A stretch of DNA of 64,000 nucleotides. Source: Zootoca vivipara. Taxonomy: Eukaryota. Below, piece after piece: positions 230 through 46,210 of the stretch. The notes under the pieces are model-generated. The model was given only the letters and a program-made list of their open reading frames with translations, was not told the origin of the DNA and did not search any database. Location: positions 26,164,001-26,228,000 of the forward strand of contig NC_083290.1 in the NCBI RefSeq assembly GCF_963506605.1. Direction: 5' to 3'. The position numbers and the translations under genes are program-made. Positions within the stretch are counted from its first letter, which is position 1. Each line of letters starts with the position of its first letter.

Positions 230-365
230 TAGGCATGTCAAACCTGCGGCCCTCCAGATGTTTTGGCCTACAACTCCCATGATCCCTAGCTAGCAGGACC
301 AGTGGTTGGGGAAGATGGGAATTGTAGTCCAAAGCATCTGGAGGGCCGCAGGTTTGACATGCCTG
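230..365. mobile_element. 136-bp non-autonomous hAT-type MITE
   Basis: Terminal inverted repeats (t/c)AGGCATGTCAAACCTGCGGCCCTCCAGATG...CATCTGGAGGGCCGCAGGTTTGACATGCCTG; same internal sequence as copies at 6581, 33141 and 37847; no clean TSD here. Confidence 0.8.
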
Positions 366-5900: not shown

Positions 5901-8900
5901 TCTGTGTGTAGTATCTCTATGTAGGCACTGGTAAATAATTGCAATACTTTGCCTTCAGGTCATAGTCCGAAGCCGTCTGGATCAGAGCATGGAGGAGAAT
6001 CAAGAGCTGAAGGTAAGAAGAGGCAGACACGATGCAAGAAAGAGGTTCCTGGGGCACCAGCTACTGAGCCATGTTCAGGGTCTTGTAGCTAACTTATAAA
6101 GCCAGAAAGGTTAGCAGAAAGACCGCCTGCTCCTCTATAAACCTGTAAGATTACTTAGATGGTTTGGGGAATTTTTACTTGTAGTAACAGACCCAACAGA
6201 ACATCGCAGAGTGGTTACCTGGAAACGGGCATTTTTGCCTCTGCCATATAGGAAGCATCATCCACAAATTGCTTCAGACAGGGGGAGGACCAAGAGGTTT
6301 GAATTTACTTATTTACTTTTGCATTTTGCAAGCCGCTTAGTGGACCTGATGGTCAAGCACAGGATATATACCTAACTGTTGGGGATGTCTGTGAGACAGG
6401 AAGATTTCGTCCGATTGCGTTTTAAAAGTTCTCACTGGGTCATTTGTGTTTACACGGGAGGAGTTGAATGCTACATGCAGGGAAACGGTGGTGTGGTTTT
6501 TTTTGTCTAACATGCAAATCCAAACCATTTCAAATTTTCATTGTGGGGCTATACCATGTGTGGGATCAATGGCTATAAAGCAGGCATCCCCAAACTGCGG
6601 CCCTCCAGATGTTTTGGCCTACAACTCCCATGATCCCTAGCTAACAGGACCAGTGGTCAGGGATGATGGGAACTGTAGTCCAAAACATCTGGAGGGCCGA
6701 AGTTTGGGGGTGCCTGCTATAAAGCATAACAAGGAACAAGGGACATGTCCTGGGGAAACACAGATTCCCCCCCCCCCCCGCAAGGATGCACTTGCATGCA
6801 CTGAGGGAAGCAAACCATGCAAACTGCACAGACCATGCTCATCCTGAACCACTTCTGTTCTGGTCATCGGCAACCGCATCCCTTGGCAACAACCAGGCCT
6901 AGACTGTGGGAACCAGCTGCAGTGAAAGAGCATGCCTAGCACTAGAAATTATATCCCATCAGGGTTCTTTACAAATTCCTTAACATAAAGCTTAAATTCC
7001 CCATGTGTTTTCAGGTTTTCCTATGGAGAGCCGTGCGGGCTATACTTCTGCATTGGCTTTTACTGCAGTCATGGCCTTCTGTAGTTGATTCTCCCCTTTT
7101 ATCGTGTGATTCTGGTTGCACAAATTTCTGGACCCTCTCTTCTTCTCCCCTGTTACAACATCCCTTCTTCAGCTACTAAGAGAAGCCTAACTCTGCAAGG
7201 TGTTCTCGAAGCCTACTTAACACTGAAAAGTTATGCTATATTTGGAGAACTAATGGGGGCATTAGTTAAGATTTCTGGCCATGTCTAAGTGTATTCACAC
7301 TTTCATTGGCAAGATGAAAGCAGCTCAGGAAAAGGCAATTCTGTCATGTCTGTCTCATCTGGGGCCTATGCAGAAGTTGGCAGCGAGCCCAGGACTCTCG
7401 CTGGAAGCTACATTCTCAGCACTGGGCCGAAAGAGAGATTTTGAGGGCTTGTCGGTTTTCCCTGTTTGCCGTTTAATGTCGAGTCCTTAAGAGATCAGGC
7501 AGTGCCCAGGGGGGTATTCATGCAGGCATTGATTTTTTTCTTGGTTCCTTCAGGCTCATTAAAACAGGTCCTGTACAAAATTCCATTTGATTTTCAAGCA
7601 TGAAAGAGGGTTTCTTTAAAACATTTTAGGTGGGGGAGGATGAACAGGGAAGGGAGGTGGGAGAGGCAGCATTGATTTTGAGACAGTGACATCAGGATGT
7701 CATTGCAACCTCACTTTGTTCAACTTTCAGAAAGAGTTGCAGAGGCACAAGCAAGAAGCTCGAAGTCTGCAAGGGGTAAAGGTGAGACATTCAAGTTTAA
7801 AATTTTGGCTATAGCCTATTGTTGCAGTTGGGCGTGATTGGCGAAGAGGTGCAGAAATGCTCGCCCAGCCTTAATGTAGGGTCATACTTGCTTTTCAAAG
7901 AATTTTCTTTTGCACATCTGAGAACCTAAACCGCTAGCTATGTCTGGAACAGACTCGCAACTTTCATTCTCTCTGTGAGCAGTGGAGAGTTTTAAAAGCA
8001 GCCAACTGGAGGTGTTGAACCTTGAATTCTGCTTGTGAGTTTTTCACCCCGACAGGACCACTTCTGAACATTTTGTAATACACATATAATCCCCACCTGC
8101 CTATCCAAATGTACACAGATGTTTGTAGCTGAAGATCTCTCACACTGGGATATATTGGGGGGGGGTGAGGGGGGGAGATACTCCAACCAGGAAGATAAGT
8201 GTTACCCGTCTAAATGCCTTTCTCCATCAGGACTCCCCCAAGGAATGTGTCTTTTTGGTAGCACTCTATACACCCCCGCCCATAGCTGCAGCCAAGGATA
8301 CTCATGGCACAGGCTTGGGCCGTGGGGAGGTCACTTTGCTGCTGCTAACACAGCAGTTTGACTTCATACTCCATTGTCTCTCAAGGCAGATGGATGCCAA
8401 CAGGAAATACCTATATTCTGCTTTTTCTATTTAAAATATCCAAGATTTAATTGAAACTGACTTATAGGGCCTTTTAAAAAAATGGTTACCAGGTGACAGT
8501 ACCACAATTCTTTTGTTTTCATTATGAGAAACAGTCGTCCTGATCGTGTGGGGCATCAACGTATATTCTCTCAATACAAATAAAAATCCCAGAGTTAGGT
8601 GTGGTGGGGAAAACTTGACTTGCTGCTTCAACCCCCACGTCCAGAATGTTTGGGCAAGGGATTGCAGAGCATATGCAGAAGGCGCTACATTCAGTTCCTT
8701 GCTTCGCCAGGTTCGGCTGAGAAACAGCCCTGCCCATAGCTGCCAAGTTATCCCTTTTTAAAAGGGATTTTCCCTCATGCTGAATAGGCTTCCTCGCGAG
8801 AAAAGGGAAAACTTGGCAGCTATGCCCCCGCCCCCGCTGCCTAGCGCGCTTGCCATTTCCCAGTTGGTGGATTGTCCAGAGGGAAATTAAAATGTGAAGA

Positions 8901-22100: not shown

Positions 22101-22632
22101 CTAAACTACAGTTCCCTTGAGTCTTTGGGGGTAAGCAGCAATATATTGCTTAAATCGTATGAAAGTTTGTCATGTAGATATGCTCCACATTTACCATCCC
22201 CTCATAAGGATGAGGAGCATTGGGGAGATACAAAATGGGTCTGAAATAAAATGAATCATTCATGGAATGATGGGGGCAATTGTATTCCCTAACTGGGTGC
22301 CTCTCAGTATTTTGGACTACAGCTTTTGTGGCTAATGGGAGTTGTAGTCAAAAACATCAAGTTGGGCAAGGCTGTATTTGAGACTAAAAAGTAGGGAGAA
22401 GTTATTGGTTTTTCTCCTCAACATATCTATGCCTGATTTTTACACAAACTCTAGAGATGTTCTGCTTCCTTTTGAAATTCCTCTTTTGAGTTCATATCCT
22501 TACAGCATGTCCCATGCAAGCTATGTATAAAATGCTCTATATTTTGTATAGAAATTCTGAAGTCTGCAATCATTACTATTACAAGGAGGTTCCTTCAGTA
22601 GCACCTTAAAGACCAACTAAGTTTTTATTTTG

Positions 22633-22670
22633 GTATGAGCTTTCGTGTGCATGCACACTTCTTCAGATAC
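22633..22670 (-). ncRNA. Minimal type-I hammerhead ribozyme motif (PLE-associated)
   Basis: Minus strand GUAU-CUGAAGA-A-GUGUGCAUGCACAC-GAAAGCUC^AUAC: helix I GUAU/AUAC, core CUGANGA...GAAA...UH, palindromic helix II, palindromic AGCU minimal helix III. Confidence 0.85.
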
Positions 22671-24067
22671 AGTGAAATGGAAGTTTCCAGGCACTTATGT
22701 AGAGAAGGGGTGGGGAGGGGTGGGGATGGGGAGGGGGGATCACTCAGAAGGGTGGTGGAAATGGGTGATTGACTGACTGATAGCTGTTGATGACCGCAAA
22801 CGACTGCAAATGGTTTTGCATGAAAAAGCAAGGGTTGAGATGGCTGAAGATCGCTTATCATGTATAATGAGATAAGAACCCGATATCTCTGTTCAAACCA
22901 GGTCCCTCCATGGTTTTGAGCTTGGTGATAAGTTGCAATTCAGCAACTTCTCTTTCCAGTCTATTTCTGAAATTCTTTTGTAGTAAGACAGCTACTTTGA
23001 GATCTTGTATAGAATGTCCTGGGAGATTGAAGTGTTCTCCTACTGGTTTTTCTGTCTTCTGGTTCCTGATGTCAGATTTATGTCCATTTATCCTTTGGCG
23101 TAGGGTTTGGCCTGTTTGTCCAATATAGAGAGCTGAAGGGCACTGTTGGCATTTGATGGCATACACAATGTTAGAGGATGAGCAATTAAATAGTCCTGAG
23201 ATGGTATGTTGGATGTTGTTGGGGCCAGTAATGGTGTTGTCTGGGTGTATGTGGCAGCAAAGTTGGCATCTGGGTTTATTGCAGGCTCTGGTACCAGTGT
23301 CCATGTTAAGTCTGGTGGTTGTATTATTGTGGGTGAGGAGTTGTTTAAGATTGGGTGGCTGTCTGTAGGCAATGAAAGGTCTTCCTCCCAGAGCTTGAGA
23401 AAGGGAGCGGTCATTGTCCAGGAGAGGCTGTAGATCTCTGATGATGCGTTGTACTGTTTTAGCTTGGGAGCTGTATGTGATGACTAGTGGTGTTCTGTTA
23501 TTTTCTTTTTTGGGTCTGTCTTGCAGCAGGTTCTCTCTAGGTATCCGTCTGGCTCTGTTGATCTGTTGTTTAACTTCATCAGGTGGATATTTTAGTTCTA
23601 AAAAGGTTTGCTGTAGATCTCTTAGGTGAGATTCTCTGTCTGTAGAGTTGGAACAGATGCGGTTGTAACGTAAGGCCTGGCTGTATACGATGGATTGTTT
23701 GGTATGTTTGGGATGGTAGCTAGAAGCATGTAGATATGTTTGTCGGTCAGTTGGTTTTCTGTATAAGGTGGTGTCTATACGTCCAGAGAAGTTGCTGAAT
23801 TGCAACTTATCACCAAGCTCAAAACCATGGAGGGACCTGGTTTGAACAGAGATATCGGGTTCTTATCTCATTATACATGATAAGCGATCTTCAGCCATCT
23901 CAACCCTTGCTTTTTCATGCAAAACCATTTGCAGTCGTTTGCGGTCATCAACAGCTATCAGTCAGTCAATCACCCATTTCCACCACCCTTCTGAGTGATC
24001 CCCCCTCCCCATCCCCACCCCTCCCCACCCCTTCTCTACATAAGTGCCTGGAAACTTCCATTTCACT

Positions 24068-24105
24068 GTATCTGAAGAAGTGTGCATGCACACGAAAGCT
24101 CATAC
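24068..24105 (+). ncRNA. Minimal type-I hammerhead ribozyme motif (PLE-associated), in DIXDC1 sense orientation
   Basis: GTATCTGAAGAAGTGTGCATGCACACGAAAGCTC^ATAC; predicted cleavage after C24101. Confidence 0.85.
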
Positions 24106-24341
24106 CAAAATAAAAACTTAGTTGGTCTTTAAGGTGCTACTGAAGGAATTTTTTTATTTTACTTCGATCCAGACCAACACGGCTACCTACCTGTAACTAT
24201 TACAAGGAGGGTTACTCTCACAACCTCCTCCCTGCACATTGCTGGCCAAGAGAGAACTGAAGCTTGTTTGTGTGCTGCAACAGTTAAACATACTTTGGAT
24301 TTGTGGACCGAGACTTTAAAGAAAGAAAAAAAATAACCTCC

Positions 24342-25486: not shown

Positions 25487-38462
<12,976 letters not shown>

Positions 38463-40590
38463 TCCCTTGAGGCCACCAGGACTTTCTTAGGTCACATCAC
38501 TTCATTCTAAAGAAGCTATTTATATATCTAGTGTTTAGACTTTTAAACAAATGTTCCCTTCTTTATTTTTAAAAAAAATCTTATCTAAATATATATATAT
38601 GGTTGCTGGTAATTTTTATTACCAGTTGTACATATTAAAATGGTTTGCATAGGCTTTCTAGAGCCTGGTTTGGTTATACTGTATTTTATACAGGGAAATG
38701 AATTTGCAAACTTTCTCCCTCCTAAATAGCCCAAAGTGATTGAAATCATGTGGAGGAGCTCGTGCTTCTGATCAAGGGAACACAGGCCCACCCAGCAACC
38801 TGATGACTCATTCTCTGTTCCCAAAAACAGAGGAACCAAGACTGGTAAAAGCAAAGAAAAAGCAAAACACAAGTTGAACTATCTGGTTGCTGAAATCCCC
38901 TTACCAGCAAAGACAGGGAGCTTGTGCATTCTCTCCTCCTGTCCTTTTAGATTAGCAGGCTGTCCTGAAGGATGGAAGAGAACAGGGTTCCCTAATGGTC
39001 CACATGCCAGCTTTTTTCTAGAGTTCAGCAGTTACTCAGATTTTATAGCCACATGAATTATTTGAGAGCACTTTAACTCAAGAACTCCAGTCAGACTCCC
39101 CACATTGTATGGCGACATTTCTTTTTTGAAATAATGCTGACCATATATGTTCATTCTAGTGCATTTTATGAACTTTTCATCTTTGTTTGGCATTAAATCT
39201 TTCATTTTAAGAGATTGCTTCCCCTTCTAGTTTAGTGAATGCTGCTTCACTTGAAGGAGCAGTCATTGTTCAGGGAATTGATGAAATTCATTAGGGGCTG
39301 ATAAACATAAACCAATGCGGTCTGAACATCTGGATGCTGACTTTAGGGTTCCCTCCCCCCTTCCACATTGTTGACCTTAGGAAGCTCTGAGAGGTGTTGG
39401 GACTAGGTGCAATCCAAATGGGACTTGTCCTGTCATTGAAATGAATGTGAGGTCACTGTCTTCCTTCATATAAAAAAGATTGTGCAGAAAAGATAACCTG
39501 AGTGGTTTGTGACCACTGGCCATAAATCAGAGTAAATGAGTTTTGCTTAAGTTCCATTGAAATCAATGGAACAGGTTAGTCGTGACTATTGAAGTGCTAT
39601 TCATTTCAAAATACAGTAGGTGTAACTATATTTCTCTGAATTGAGGTCAGTTCTGTAACAACTTTGTCTTTTGCCAATCCCAGCCTCGGGGAAGTGGCAA
39701 AATTTCTTTGGTCATGTAAATAGTGTAAAAAATTAAATTGCTTGGAATGGTTTTCTGTTGAAATTGTGCCCATTTGCATTTAAGATTGTGTCCACAAAGG
39801 GAAGGATTCTCTAGTGGAAAACACTCCCACGTTTGCTTTCCAAAGAAAATGTTAATTTACAAAGGAGGATCATGTAATAGCCAAGTGACGTGACCTGGAG
39901 AGCCAAGTATACCATTGATAAATATACCCCAAATTATTCTGTATGATATGCATTGCATTAAGTATTGTAAAGTTGTGCTACCAAATCCACTAAAAGAATA
40001 TTCAAGGTGGTTATACTGTGGAGATTAAATATTTTTCTGAGACCCATCTAATATTTTGTTAATTTAGTTGCTGTTTTGCATAAAATCTTTACTGTTTTGG
40101 GAAGAAGCAAGTTGCACTCAAAACGTCCTAACTCCGTTCCCGTCTGGCCAGTTAAGCCAGTTGTGTTCCATTAAATGTTTAAAATTTATTAGATGGCTTT
40201 TTCTTGTCCCTGCTGCTTCATTGTTTGCTGAGGCTATTATGGTATGTGTGTGGAACTGACCCTACTAGTAAGAAGGATTGCTGAGCTTGCCTCACTATTT
40301 GAATCAGTGAAACATGAATCTTAACTTGTCCCACTCAGGGGCTGGGAGTCACAAGAGATTTGTTACTTGAACTATGGATAGCTTGTGCCTACTAACTCCG
40401 TAGCTGCTCTAAATGTTCTTCAGTTATTTTTAGAATCCAACTTAACTAAAGCCTTGAAACTTTTGTGTTTGTTTCATTGTAATAATCCAAAACATTTTAT
40501 TCTACTGACTTTTTAAAATTTTACTGACTATTTCATAAGTAGGGAATGGCTAGTTTCCATTTTTCTTCTTCTTTGATGCTACGGTATGAA

Positions 40591-40730
40591 GTTGGCTAGC
40601 TCAGTCTGTAGAGCATGAGACTTTTAATTCCAGGGCTGTGGGTTCGAGCCCCATGTTGGGTGAAAGATTCCTGCATTGCGGGGAATTGGAATAGATGACC
40701 CTTGTGGCCCCTTCTAATTCTACAATTCTA
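40591..40730 (+). mobile_element. tRNA-Lys-derived SINE with CR1-type 3' tail (Squam2-like)
   Basis: GGCTAGCTCAGTCTGTAGAGCATGAGACTTTTAAT...GGTTCGAGCCCC, then TAGATGACCCTTG...ATTCTACAATTCTA. Confidence 0.8.
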
Positions 40731-41414: not shown

Positions 41415-44075
41415 TCACTTCTTTTCAGACACAGGCATTGTGATAAGCAAGACTCTTTTCCGGCTGTGAAATGCTGCCGTTGTTGCTTCTTCATTCACAG
41501 ACTGCGGAAGATCCAAGTGTAATTTATACTTTGCAGGGCATTCAATCAATACATCATCCTAAAATCGAAAAATAAGTTTCTTTGTAAATGAAGTACATGT
41601 GATTGCTACAGGTGAGGCGTGCCAGATGGACACAGGGCTGTCCGAAGGGCAGCCAGAAGGGCAGCCAGAGTTGAGTGTAATTCATGACTAACTTACCTCG
41701 GAAACGCTTAGGTCACACTCAGAGACACAGTGTACCTCTGGCAATTCAACTTTCAGTTCAATCTTCAGAGGCTTCTCATTCGTATCCTTTATGATGGTCA
41801 CTTCATAGGCTGGGGTGCACAATTCCTCTGGCTGCTCTGTAGTGGAAATCTCTTCAATGAGGCATGTTTTAGAGGGCACCATGTTTTCCATTAGCAGAGT
41901 AAAGTCACTGCTGTCTTCCTTTGTTATGATGTTTCTCAGTTGGTCAAGTGTCACTTCTTTCCAAGGTGATTTTTAGACATGGGAATTTAAAAAATACTTC
42001 AATGGATCACATAGCTACAGAAGTATCAGTTATATGTCCTACCTGCCCTCATACAGTTGTAGTGTAGCTAGTAGACAACGGGATGTTTGCTGGCATAATA
42101 AGCTTAAGAGTAGCCTCTTTCTGGGTTAGATCAAGAATCCAGTTAACCCCTGTTTGCTCTTGACCTGATTGAAGAGTTTGCCAATAAAATTTGGCAAGCA
42201 CAATAGTTCTGAAGCAAGAACCACATTTTTCTTTTAGATGATGCATGCAACTGTTTGCAGACATCTTAGAACAGCAATTTCCTCCTATATTAAAGAAAAA
42301 GGAATTGCCTCTCAGCTGCAGTTTGTATAAATACTTACATAAAAACTCATTTAAGGGGGAAGGTTCCATTTAGTGTACTCATAAGTTTTTTAATTTCATT
42401 TTAAAATTGATAAAATATTTCAGGTCCTACTGTTCATCTTAAATTCATAAAACAAGAATATACTGAGGCATGCTGAAACCAAACACGCTTCTGCAAGGGC
42501 TTCTTAATGTGAGTTATAACTTGCATCCTAAAGAGTAGTGTGAGAAGTTTCATCATACCCCATCATGTTTCACTCCTGGTAATGACTTGGGAGGGTACTT
42601 ACCTTTCTGTAAGGTCTTCTGGGACAAAGCCACTGGTGCTTGCTCTCTCCTTAAGCTCTGTCTCATCCTTGCCAGGCTTCCCTTCAGTTTAAATTTTGTA
42701 ATAGTATAGGAGTTTGACAGAATGATGTTGTAATGCTCCTCAATATACTTAAGTGATAGATGGATCAATTGGTCCTTCATTGTTGGGTCATCCTTTCCCT
42801 TCTCAATAACAGATTGGTTGTATGCAATATCAAGGACAGTATAAAACTCTAGAAGAAAAAAAATAGTCTAATTACAGTGGTACCTCTACTTACAAATGTT
42901 TCTACTTAGGAATGGAGCTCCGTCCGCCATCTTGGATGCGGTTTAGATAGGATTTTTTCTACTTACGAATTTTTAGGGTTGCTTCGACTTACGATTTTTT
43001 CTCCCAATGCATTCCTATGGGATTCGACTTACAATTTTTTTGACTTACAAATGTGCATTCGGAACGCATTAAATTCGTAAGTAGAGGTACCACTGTATTG
43101 GTTTTTCATATACATTATATTGTAGAAGACAATGGCGGTATAGCTAAATATGAAGGTTATAAATGTTTGTTGTTGTTTTTAAAAATCATTGTCAAATTGT
43201 GATATTTCAATTGATTTTGCTCTTTTGGCTGTTCCTTTCCTACTCTTTCAGCTAAGGCTCATTGGTTTATATTGTACATTCCTGTCATTTTCACCCCACC
43301 CATTTGGAGAGAGAAAATGGGCTGGGATATAAGGGGCTAAAATAGACCTCTAGAAATGAGTACTGTGCTACAAAGCAAGCTAAACCTTCTGCAAGTAGAA
43401 AAGCTGACCTGATTTCTCTGATACCTCCTCCATTTTGCCAGCCCTCAATGGCACTGGGTCAGATGGCAATTGGGGTGCTGGAACCTGATTCCACCTGCAG
43501 AGGTTAACGAACAATGATTTTTCAGTAGGATCCTGGAAAAAGAATCCAAAACCAGTCAATTAATAAAGGAGGATAATTTATTACTACATCATACAGGCAT
43601 GAACTGGAATAGGAACACAGTCAAACTCTGGTTTGCATTCTCTGGTATTTCTGGTCCAGTGTTTTTGGATTAACTGAAAAGATAATTGCACCTGTTACCT
43701 TACATCCATCTTGTTTTCTATTCTATATAAATAAATAGTTAGGAAGAAGCAATAGAACAAATATAGAATGCAAATCAAGTGCAGAGATGCCTTTTGTATC
43801 TGCCTGGCTAGTTAAGTAAAGGTTTGGTGAAAATGGAGGCATATTTTGATGTCTGAGCTTCCTTCTTGCAGTGCAGGTGTCTTGCAACATACCAAGATGC
43901 AGGTCTTCAGGCACATGTATGGTTCTGCAGGAGCAAAATGTTGCTTTGCGTCTTTGAGTTGCTGCTGCATGAACTGGTGGTAACTTTCAGGATTGCTCTC
44001 AGCCATGTCATCGAGCATCGTCCAGAGTTGGTTTGCTTTTGCCAGCATATCCTCAGAGTTGCAAAGAGCCTCCAT
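41415..44075 (-). CDS. PIH1D2: PIH1 domain-containing protein 2 (318 aa)
   Basis: Exons 44075-43893, 43532-43409, 42848-42603, 41956-41697, 41558-41415 join in frame (957 nt): QLWTMLDDMAESNPESYHQFMQQQL...LFVNLCRWNQVPAP...LDIAYN...LKVELP...YKLHLDLP...LLITMPV; syntenic position between DLAT and NKAPD1. Confidence 0.93.
42875..43095. mobile_element. Tc1/mariner (Tigger/pogo-type) MITE
   Basis: TA|CAGTGGTACCTCTACTTAC...GTAAGTAGAGGTACCACTG|TA; inserted 26 nt upstream of a PIH1D2 acceptor. Confidence 0.88.
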
Positions 44076-44408
44076 GATTGTCTCTTCAACAGTGGGCGGC
44101 TGCAGCAACACAAGAAGAGAGTATGAGAAGACTGTGGGAACAGAACTGTGAAGCTCAGCAGGTGCTTCCAGGGCCTTATTGTGCTCTTTTCTCTGACAGT
44201 GGTAAAATCTATACAGGGGGGGGGATGATTGACTGTGGCTGTCCTTCTCTAAAGAATTGGGAAAACCAATGAGCTAGTCCTACAGCATGTGCCTTGCTGC
44301 CTTGTGCGATGGCAGGATATCTCTCTTGCCCCAACACAGGGCTCTCCAGAGATTTGGGGCTACAGGAAGGCTGGGGCAGATGGGATTTGCAATCCAAGGC
44401 ATCGGGAG

Positions 44409-44470
44409 CATAGCTGCCAAGTTCTCCCTTTTTTTAAGGGAAATTCCCTTATGCTGAATAGGCTTCCTAT
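44409..44470. mobile_element. Partial copy of the 90-bp CATAGCTGCCAAGTT element
   Basis: CATAGCTGCCAAGTTCTCCC...ATGCTGAATAGGCTTCCT; the second TIR is missing. Confidence 0.65.
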
Positions 44471-45007
44471 GATCGGGAGGACATTAGCTTTGGAAAAGCT
44501 ACTTTAAAACAGTTGCTTGGCAGGCATGAATGCAACAGGTACAGCTTTTCCAAACCAATGTGATGAACAAAGCTGCGTCTGTTAAAAAGATGTGACAAAG
44601 TAGCTAAAAAGGGAAGTCCCAAGTTTAGATACTCTATGCTACGTGCTTCCTAAGACTGCAATCCTATCCAAACATCCCTTGGAATCTAAGCACATCAAAG
44701 AAACAATATTTGAGTAAACAACATTCATGGATTGTTCTGTAAATGCCTTTAAGCAAAACTGTTCTTTCTCTGCACCCCGTCATAAGGGGTAATTATACTG
44801 GCCTACTCTGTAGGGCTGTTTGTTTTATTTTAAATATTTATACCACATACCTTTGCAGGGCAAGTTCCAAAATGCAAAGCAATAAAAACTCAGTAGTAAA
44901 ATCTGCAGCTAAAAACTGCACACAAAACCATTTCATTAAATATAAGGGTGGCTTGATCCATGAGGCCTTGATCCAGTATACATCTCCCAAACTCAATCTG
45001 ACTTGCT

Positions 45008-45042
45008 TCTGATGAAGTGTGCATGCACACGAAAGCTAATAC
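45008..45042 (+). ncRNA. Hammerhead ribozyme core (5' strand of helix I largely lost)
   Basis: CUGAUGA-A-GUGUGCAUGCACAC-GAAAGCUA^AUAC; the upstream GUAU is replaced by flanking sequence, so probably impaired. Confidence 0.6.
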
Positions 45043-45098
45043 CTATGACAAACTTAGTTGGTCTCTAAGATGCTACTGGAAGGAATTTTCTTTTTTTT
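45008..45098 (+). mobile_element. ~90-nt PLE-derived mini-insertion (hammerhead core + short 3' segment), diverged subfamily
   Basis: TCTGATGAAGTGTGCATGCACACGAAAGCTAATACC...AACTTAGTTGGTCTCTAAGATGCTACTGGAAGGAATTTT; direct repeat TTGCTTCTGA at 45003-45012 and 45097-45106. Confidence 0.8.
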
Positions 45099-45589
45099 GC
45101 TTCTGAATAGACATGCCCAGGATTGAAACTTTGAAAAGCAGTATAAAAAGGCTAAGACTTCCACTAACCCTGAGGAATAAATATTACACAACACAATGGA
45201 GCATTTTCCCGAGCAGACATGCAAATGATTGCTCTCATAAGGCTGCAATCCTATATCCAACGACCTGAGAATTCAATTTAAATCGGGCGCTGACTTCACA
45301 GTAGATAGAACACACAGGATTGGGCTATATTCTTGGGTGCCTGTTTCAGGTGCCAAACACGAACTTGTTTCCCTGCTACCCAGGAGAAAAATGAACGAGC
45401 GGCCCTGCTTCGTGGCCGTGATTACTCAAGAGTAAATCCCGCTGACTTCAACAGGGCTTACTTGCAAGCCGAAAACTGGGAGGGGAAGGCATTTTACACG
45501 TGTAAAAAAAGAGGGATGCCAGAGAAATATCAACAACTACAAGAGAGCTAATAGTGTATAAATAATTTTTGGTGTTGCGGTTTTTTGTG

Positions 45590-46210
45590 CTGAGACTCCT
45601 TTGTGGAGGCCACGACCAACCTACCCAGCGGGTCCTCGCGCTCAAGCCGTCTCCCTAGCAACCGCCGGAAGGAGAAAGTGGCCTCCGCCGGAAGCGGAAG
45701 CGAGGCGCTCTCTTTCTTCCCCCGGCTCTTCTTGCCCCACGCCTTCCGAGTTCCGAGGCCTGACAAATCATCAGCTCGGGAGTCTGCCGCTTGCGTGGTC
45801 GAGGTCCCCGGAAGGAAGCGGGGAAAAAAAAATAAGCGGAGGGAAAGCTCGGGACTCGGGTGGTGAAGGAACGTGTGAATGGGTGCTCGGCTGTGACTCG
45901 TGGGCTGGCAAGGCTCGCTAACTTTCGGTGAGGGGGATGCTCGCTCTATTATATTCCTATCTTGGTCTCTCGGGGCGGGGGGGGGGCATTCGTGGCTCCC
46001 TCCCTCTTTCCCTCCGCTCATCCTATTTTGTCTTCGCAACAACCGCGGTAGGTCAGAACCTGAGCGGGAATTTGAACCCGGGCCTATTGAATGACGCCTG
46101 GGCTAGGCAGCGCACCGTCCCCGCCTTGCAAGCGCTCATTAGCACAGCTGGGGAAGCAGCGTCGACTTGGAAGAAAATCGCAGCAGCTGCGCCCTGCACG
46201 ACCTCAGAAT
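45590..46210. promoter_or_regulatory. Bidirectional CpG-island promoter PIH1D2 / NKAPD1
   Basis: CpG-rich segment between divergent genes with repeated ETS/GABP-type CCGGAAG sites (~45665, ~45687, ~45807). Confidence 0.8.

Follow-up and report, generated by a model that had tools for sequence, protein, structure and literature searches.

A 94-base insertion in Zootoca vivipara is an ordinary end-piece of a very abundant Penelope-like retroelement

Introduction

EN+ Penelope-like elements are known for 5'-truncated insertions. As characterized in the available part of PMC8557442, elements of the Neptune/Nematis linker type encode an RT followed by a C-terminal GIY-YIG domain with a CX4CxxC linker. 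They carry pLTRs, occur in tandem and inverted copies with an optional 30-40-nt tail, and show heavy 5' truncation. All of these traits recur in the family described here. However, truncation is variable in the elements of PMC8557442, whereas the present family has a sharp, G-marked boundary at the edge of a hammerhead motif in thousands of copies.

The minimal hammerhead of Penelope-like elements (min-HHR), in the portion of PMC4209133 accessible to us, has a long helix II, an extra base between positions 9 and 10.1, G10.1-C11.1, a palindromic 15.2-16.2 without loop 3 and a short helix I, and mostly occurs as single scattered motifs. The hammerhead considered here agrees on each point. That paper proposes cleavage and circles, but the boundaries of the present family show neither, and the insert studied here keeps two of four helix I pairs.

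The Poseidon element PAc of Anolis carolinensis (PMC11167929, available text) resembles the present family in having two favored 3' ends, one at each edge of the tail, two usable strands, a hammerhead at the pLTR-ORF junction and no RNA ends at the cut site. It differs in that its ORF starts in stem II (Poseidon clade), whereas the long ORF of the present family starts well after the core; the available text of the PAc study includes no genomic map of 5' ends. In Penelope of D. virilis, the start lies in the pLTR and the internal promoter is TATA-less, according to the consulted part of PMC2377424. Full-length L1-type cDNAs carry an extra 5' G that has been attributed to the m7G cap (PMC4038843, in the part available). 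One excess G before the first templated base is common to both systems, although L1-type elements are a different retroelement class and the product here would be ~90-130 nt, from internal priming. We found no paper on cap-marked short copies ("minis") of Penelope-like elements, which subscription papers, Repbase or Dfam entries and supplements (e.g., the insertion-end plot in Fig. S2 of PMC11167929) may cover.

Results

The insert is a target-duplicated pLTR end. We analyzed a window of Z. vivipara DNA (the whole stretch, 64,000 nt) containing a 94-base insert that is species-restricted, flanked by a target duplication and derived from the pLTR end of a Neptune-type Penelope-like element. It is a real insertion, yet an ordinary end-piece of a very abundant Penelope-type retroelement. 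Offsets below count C3 (45009) as 0. The plus-strand copy spans 45008/45009-45096, from the core at 45009 through the 14-nt palindrome to the T tract:

45003..45012, + strand: left copy of the 10-nt target-site duplication, TTGCTTCTGA, ending in TCTGA, 5 nt that it shares with the element (5' microhomology)
45008..45016, + strand: element 5' end, hammerhead core C3-A9 and the extra A between 9 and 10.1; N7 (45013) is T, versus A in subfamily B
45017..45030, + strand: palindromic helix II, 14 nt, the same as in the parent
45031..45038, + strand: GAAA, palindromic AGCU (minimal helix III) and H17, which is A versus C in the family; predicted cut after 45038, from comparison with the motif in the available part of PMC4209133
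45039..45042, + strand: 3' strand of helix I, AUAC; two of four pairs with the host flank, which replaces the parent's GUAU
45043..45084, + strand: subfamily-B linker and conserved 3' pLTR segment
45085..45096, + strand: T-rich tract, where the insert stops at the first of two 3' ends favored in the family; it lacks the ~35-nt tail
45097..45106, + strand: right copy of the target-site duplication, TTGCTTCTGA, which also resembles the element's TTG(T/C)TTC

A preliminary description of this DNA had reported the bounding repeats, the overlap of the repeat with the element through TCTGA, the 14-nt palindrome, the cleavage triplet CUA, and sequence that differs from that of the long copies in the window. 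We recovered every one of these features, with the repeats at 45003-45012 and 45097-45106, the palindrome at 45017-45030 and, by copy comparison, the differences in the linker and 3' part. The 3' junction is likewise element-like (target TTGCTTC, element TTGTTTC/TTGCTTC).

The orthologous site is empty in a related species. In organism B (DNA run X14), one contig of depth 8 joins 45002 to 45097. It skips 94 bases and has a single TTGCTTCTGA, with 10 ambiguous letters that fit either side. Because this contig omits exactly 94 bases and retains one TTGCTTCTGA, the 10-base repeat is a target duplication. The single repeat copy is what the preliminary description expected of an empty site; the insert is absent from this relative, and its independence as an insertion is supported. 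Thousands of family records in run X14 show that the family is older than the insertion at 45003. Contigs span both junctions in two more runs of the same species (X2 and X7), and the X2 pieces show no differences. No empty joint is listed in X2 or X7, which does not prove fixation since contigs drop rare alleles. Across the family, an exact flanking repeat of at least 7 bases occurs in 12 of 44 simple short copies, while mismatched flanks give a mean of 2.1 and a maximum of 6.

The insert lies in a predicted intron. A minus-strand PIH1-family gene, recognized from a Pfam PIH1 match and RNA reads, has its start codon at 44075 and is flanked by a 2-oxoacid acyltransferase exon on one side and, on the other, by a weak NKAP match below the Pfam cut-off. 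From this setting and the usual gene order, we take the genes to be PIH1D2, DLAT and NKAPD1.

44100..45624, - strand: predicted first (5'UTR) intron of the PIH1-family gene, with the insert inside in antisense; based on splice signals and exon read depth, with no junction read among the listed joints

The insert is ~520 bases from the first exon and, as had been proposed, between the start of the PIH1-family gene and a GC-rich promoter. Since the predicted intron carries it in antisense, the host transcript would lack the ribozyme strand. No RNA record covering the insert locus is listed. The insert is thus a species-restricted presence/absence marker in an intron, and as a single copy it matters little. 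The same intron holds a second small repeat insertion (72 nt, window 44408-44479), which is also missing in organism B and has very high cross-mapping depth.

The parent family is Neptune-type. Judging from its sequence, the parent is an active Penelope-like element with RT plus GIY-YIG. The two 3' patterns of the family have ~25,000 exact matches: 10,177 of B type, to which the insert belongs, and 14,732 of A type. At locus L230, full-length tandem units of 3,030 nt contain a single 901-amino-acid ORF (RVT_1 E 4e-12; C-terminal GIY-YIG E 6e-5), with its ATG 133 nt after the core. CNKPRCQLC at residue 761 provides CX4CxxC between RT and EN, and CxxC lies between GIY and YIG. By the linker criteria given in the available part of PMC8557442 (CX2-5CxxC between RT and EN, CxxC between GIY and YIG), these residues place the element in the Neptune/Nematis type. 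Tandem pLTRs, inverted partners and an optional tail complete the EN+ Penelope-like organization. The ORF end is present in 9 of 13 long B-type loci tested, mostly at ~90% identity, and matches the L230 C-terminus; inverted arrangement was flagged in 50 of 100 sampled B copies. Long copies encode the GIY-YIG end, and all 150 candidates that were scored, from a total of 8,917, showed 100% identity over 217 residues. Subfamily A is very young, with many intact 925-codon frames.

Within the window there are four other family copies, three long copies and a first mini:

35478..36450, - strand: longer copy of the parent, of subfamily A, comprising the GIY-YIG end, a pLTR that includes a TATA-like box, the hammerhead and the tail
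31694..31787, - strand: first mini, of the U7 subfamily; starts at -4, with G before the start and an 8-nt flanking repeat

Subfamily A is represented by an inverted pair at 22590-24199 and the single copy at 35478-36450, with near-identical ORF ends. The insert had been assigned to a different subfamily from these, and rightly so, as it is B, whereas the long copies of the window are A and the 31.7 kb mini belongs to the U7 subfamily.

Some further features of the pLTR were noted. From offset +14 onward, an ATG frame in loop II of B-type copies reads through the T tract and tail; in A it stops after 11 codons. At L230 ~1235-1270 (+65 to +100), a branch-point-like motif, the T tract and a CAG before the ORF resemble a 3' splice site, comparable to that of the Penelope 5'UTR intron. 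The CAG is kept in all subfamilies seen. No GT..AG joint using the T tract and CAG as acceptor appears among 15 listed of 49 joints.

The hammerhead is conserved between subfamilies but not protected in dead copies. No hammerhead family matched at E<=1 in an Rfam scan of the whole 64-kb window, and we therefore call the ribozyme by its likeness to the minimal motif published in PMC4209133 (available part). The parent has CUGANGA, the extra base, a long helix II, GAAA, a palindromic minimal helix III, NUH and a helix I of 4-5 bp. Its intact helix I is not found in the insert, where half is lost and 2 of 4 pairs are left, a reduction already noted in the preliminary description. The Rfam scan also reported a tRNA-like sequence at window 40590-40662. 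A palindromic ~84-nt repeat with four copies (window 256-339, 6607-6690, 33167-33250 and 37873-37956) fell below threshold against Rfam mir-5408.

The claim that CUGAUGA is unchanged among copies failed: the three long copies in the window read CUGAAGA, and genome-wide exact matches number 18,669 for this A form versus 946 for the U form. The accompanying claim, that the core is better conserved than its flank, held between subfamilies and not between copies. Four subfamily groups differ in 1 of 38 hammerhead columns (N7) versus 15 of 31 promoter columns (p=6e-6, the groups not being independent); the segment 3' of the linker is likewise well kept. At the copy level, the insert has three substitutions relative to 10 copies of its own subfamily (B2), at 45013 (N7), 45038 (H17) and 45070, in a comparison that left out loci chosen for their likeness to it. 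Two of the three fall in the core, both on the tolerated positions N7 and H17, as noted post hoc. Among 35 ungapped B copies, the CpG C11.1-G12 is mutated six times at each base, and CpG decay has thereby changed the catalytic G12 in 6 of 35.

The U7 common to both minis is likely a coincidence: in one it marks a subfamily, whereas in the other it is near-private. U7 is not diagnostic of minis, because long copies of a single subfamily make up 12 of 30 U7 loci. In B-type copies, 112 matches have T before GAAG and 4,647 have A; of 15 T cases inspected, most are junction effects. Among the first 100 of the 112 listed T-preceded matches, the insert alone combines CUA with CCTATG. The sole other CUA match among these 100 is not a U7 copy, so we rejected a minor U7+CUA source lineage.

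The insert is likely inert as a ribozyme, as its reduced helix I would predict. Its monomer fold is no better than shuffles (z 0.5). Free dimer folding gives a 14-bp intermolecular helix II duplex rather than the catalytic dimer, in parent and insert alike, and therefore says nothing about activity.

The family has a 5' boundary hotspot just before the core. The boundary sample was anchored on the 3' pattern, which leaves 5' ends unselected, and comprised the first 100 of 10,177 B matches together with 30 A matches, likewise the first; every copy sampled for its boundaries lies in the first 10 Mb of a single contig (C1). Among the 100 B copies, 29 begin at -7..0 (11 at -4, and 16 at -5..-3), 52 within the core or past it and 19 upstream of -7; 13 are long. 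Of B copies that reach -7..0, 29/48 end there, compared with 6/54 at +1..+7 (p=2e-7) and 3/19 at -15..-8 (p=0.001). The hotspot persists in non-inverted B copies alone (15/31 vs 3/34, p=6e-4). The predicted cleavage site is the 5' end of only 3/100 B copies (+29..+31). The A sample is mostly long (19/30, with 4/30 ending at -7..0), so hotspot strength varies by subfamily. The nearly identical boundaries of the two minis, remarked upon earlier, thus reflect a genuine family hotspot. The insert itself starts at -1 or later, lacks the G and GTA, and falls at least 3 nt short of the 5' end most common in the family (G at -4).

The 3' ends are bimodal, with 45/100 in the T tract and 45/100 carrying the full tail. 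These two ends match the two internal RT starts reported in the available text of PMC11167929. At L230:1215-1275, upstream GTTGGTCT pairs with tail AGACCAAC, which would put the first 3'-end hotspot in the loop of the stem, a candidate RT-start structure.

An excess G marks the 5' boundary. The base at -5 departs from the element in 4,980 (28%) of the 17,719 exact GTAT-core matches, being G in 3,310, A in 1,052 and C in 618. G accounts for 66% of non-T bases before GTAT versus 31-41% expected, even though T-to-G is a transversion. G precedes 6/11 copies starting at -4 but 10/87 at other breakpoints (p=0.002); among inspected G-preceded loci, 1/30 are long and 12/30 inverted. A TATA-like motif lies 31 nt upstream of the -4 edge in 69/70 long copies from five groups, despite a diverged spacer, the count taking in only long copies where the motif was found. 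Run-off cDNAs from a capped transcript would be expected to end at a set spacing from a promoter motif and to show excess G, as the family boundary does.

A single unexplained G also joins an element piece to GTAT at three loci (L018, L251 and L278) and at two RNA-contig joints. In 11 G-preceded copies that have a target duplication, the G is outside the duplication in four (alone in two, with 1-2 further letters in two) and shared with the target in seven; a shared G would follow from selection of G-bearing targets by a terminal C on the cDNA. Untemplated C also occurs at junctions. An inverted arm ending in G adjoins 6/41 G cases. At L291/L292 (G000:C1:22890556-22890607), head-to-head inverted arms meet exactly at -4 in a perfect palindrome; this and similar pairs spaced by 25 nt suggest two run-off cDNAs joined blunt.

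RNA reads reflect mostly passive copies. In three ordinary RNA-seq runs (~6% of each run, mostly passive copies), there was no read-start pile at -4 and no read-end pile at the hammerhead cut site. Depth at the ORF start was 0-13, and RNA depth was confined to the -4-to-tail interval, with 78-92% of aligned reads running on into unlike sequence. The missing start pile and the low ORF-start depth indicate that family reads come from host transcripts carrying dead copies. Thus, the transcription start of the element is one that we infer rather than see in these runs. Family reads in run X21 were antisense to sense at ~2.4 to 1, and higher in a further read set; X22 and X23 showed weaker or no bias.

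Discussion

The insert was probably made by the element's own RT, starting inside its own RNA at the T tract and running off the capped 5' end just before the hammerhead core. Run-off of this kind is also the most probable origin of the boundary across the family, and the minis in general are likely such cDNAs. Transcription would begin at the G four bases before the core, and the RT would start internally at the tail edges, as the consulted part of PMC11167929 describes for the Poseidon clade. Because priming is internal, the product would be only ~90-130 nt. The extra G may record the cap, the hammerhead would have been copied uncut, and the cDNA end of this insert may have annealed through TCTGA, losing its last 3-4 bases.

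A truncation during copying is a rather unlikely alternative, in which RT on a longer RNA, on reaching the outer edge of helix I, stalls or switches template, with the G coming from terminal addition, fold-back onto the cDNA's GGTAT or microhomology. The -4 edge is indeed the first base of helix I, and breaks have a slightly higher hazard within helix II (0.023 per base vs ~0.01-0.015 elsewhere). However, RT would presumably have unwound helix I before reaching its 5' strand, and the fixed -31 TATA spacing across diverged promoters is left unexplained. Fold-back over three bases fits 4/34 G cases, but even at one base the prediction is matched by only 14/34. Cleavage by the hammerhead, with the cut site as template start, is very improbable as the origin of the 5' ends, even though the minimal hammerhead of the parent is complete and is conserved from one subfamily to another. 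It predicts starts at +30, where the B sample has 3/100 at +29..+31 against 16 at -5..-3; the RNA runs show no read-end pile at the cut site, and hammerhead mutants had no effect on insertion in vitro in the available text of PMC11167929.

It is quite improbable that the minis are a separate non-autonomous SINE-like or retrozyme-like element with its own transcription and multiplication, as might be read from the very many short copies of similar size and the limits of RNA depth. Minis have ragged rather than fixed ends and no upstream promoter of their own, and bear the diagnostic bases of each long subfamily; most reads in the three runs continue into unlike sequence. Exaptation of the insert, whether as a functional ribozyme or as a regulatory element serving the divergent promoter of PIH1D2/NKAPD1, is scarcely credible. 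Its closeness to the first exon, its presence in two other runs of the species and core changes confined to tolerated N7 and H17 would suit such a role, but it is antisense to the host transcript, missing in the relative and half without helix I, and it has no dimer partner and a monomer fold that does not surpass shuffles. That the insert is a deletion remnant of a longer copy has a negligible probability; we found no support for it, and the site in organism B is empty with one repeat copy.

Copying from an internal start to the capped end gives the family pattern a wider reading, which we hold with somewhat more confidence than doubt. The hammerhead would be the first structure of the capped mRNA, and internal priming in the 5' pLTR would yield strong-stop-like cDNAs of ~90-130 bases, inserting alone, head-to-head or following other pieces. 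The thousands of genomic minis would then record both start and cap, and the ribozyme would be selected for a role other than making the template 5' end. The pattern has implications for the debated copying mechanism of Penelope-like elements and for the function of their hammerhead. It ties the internal RT start known in vitro to a product in the genome whose two ends are both accounted for, and it predicts the transcription start to the base in a young family with intact copies.
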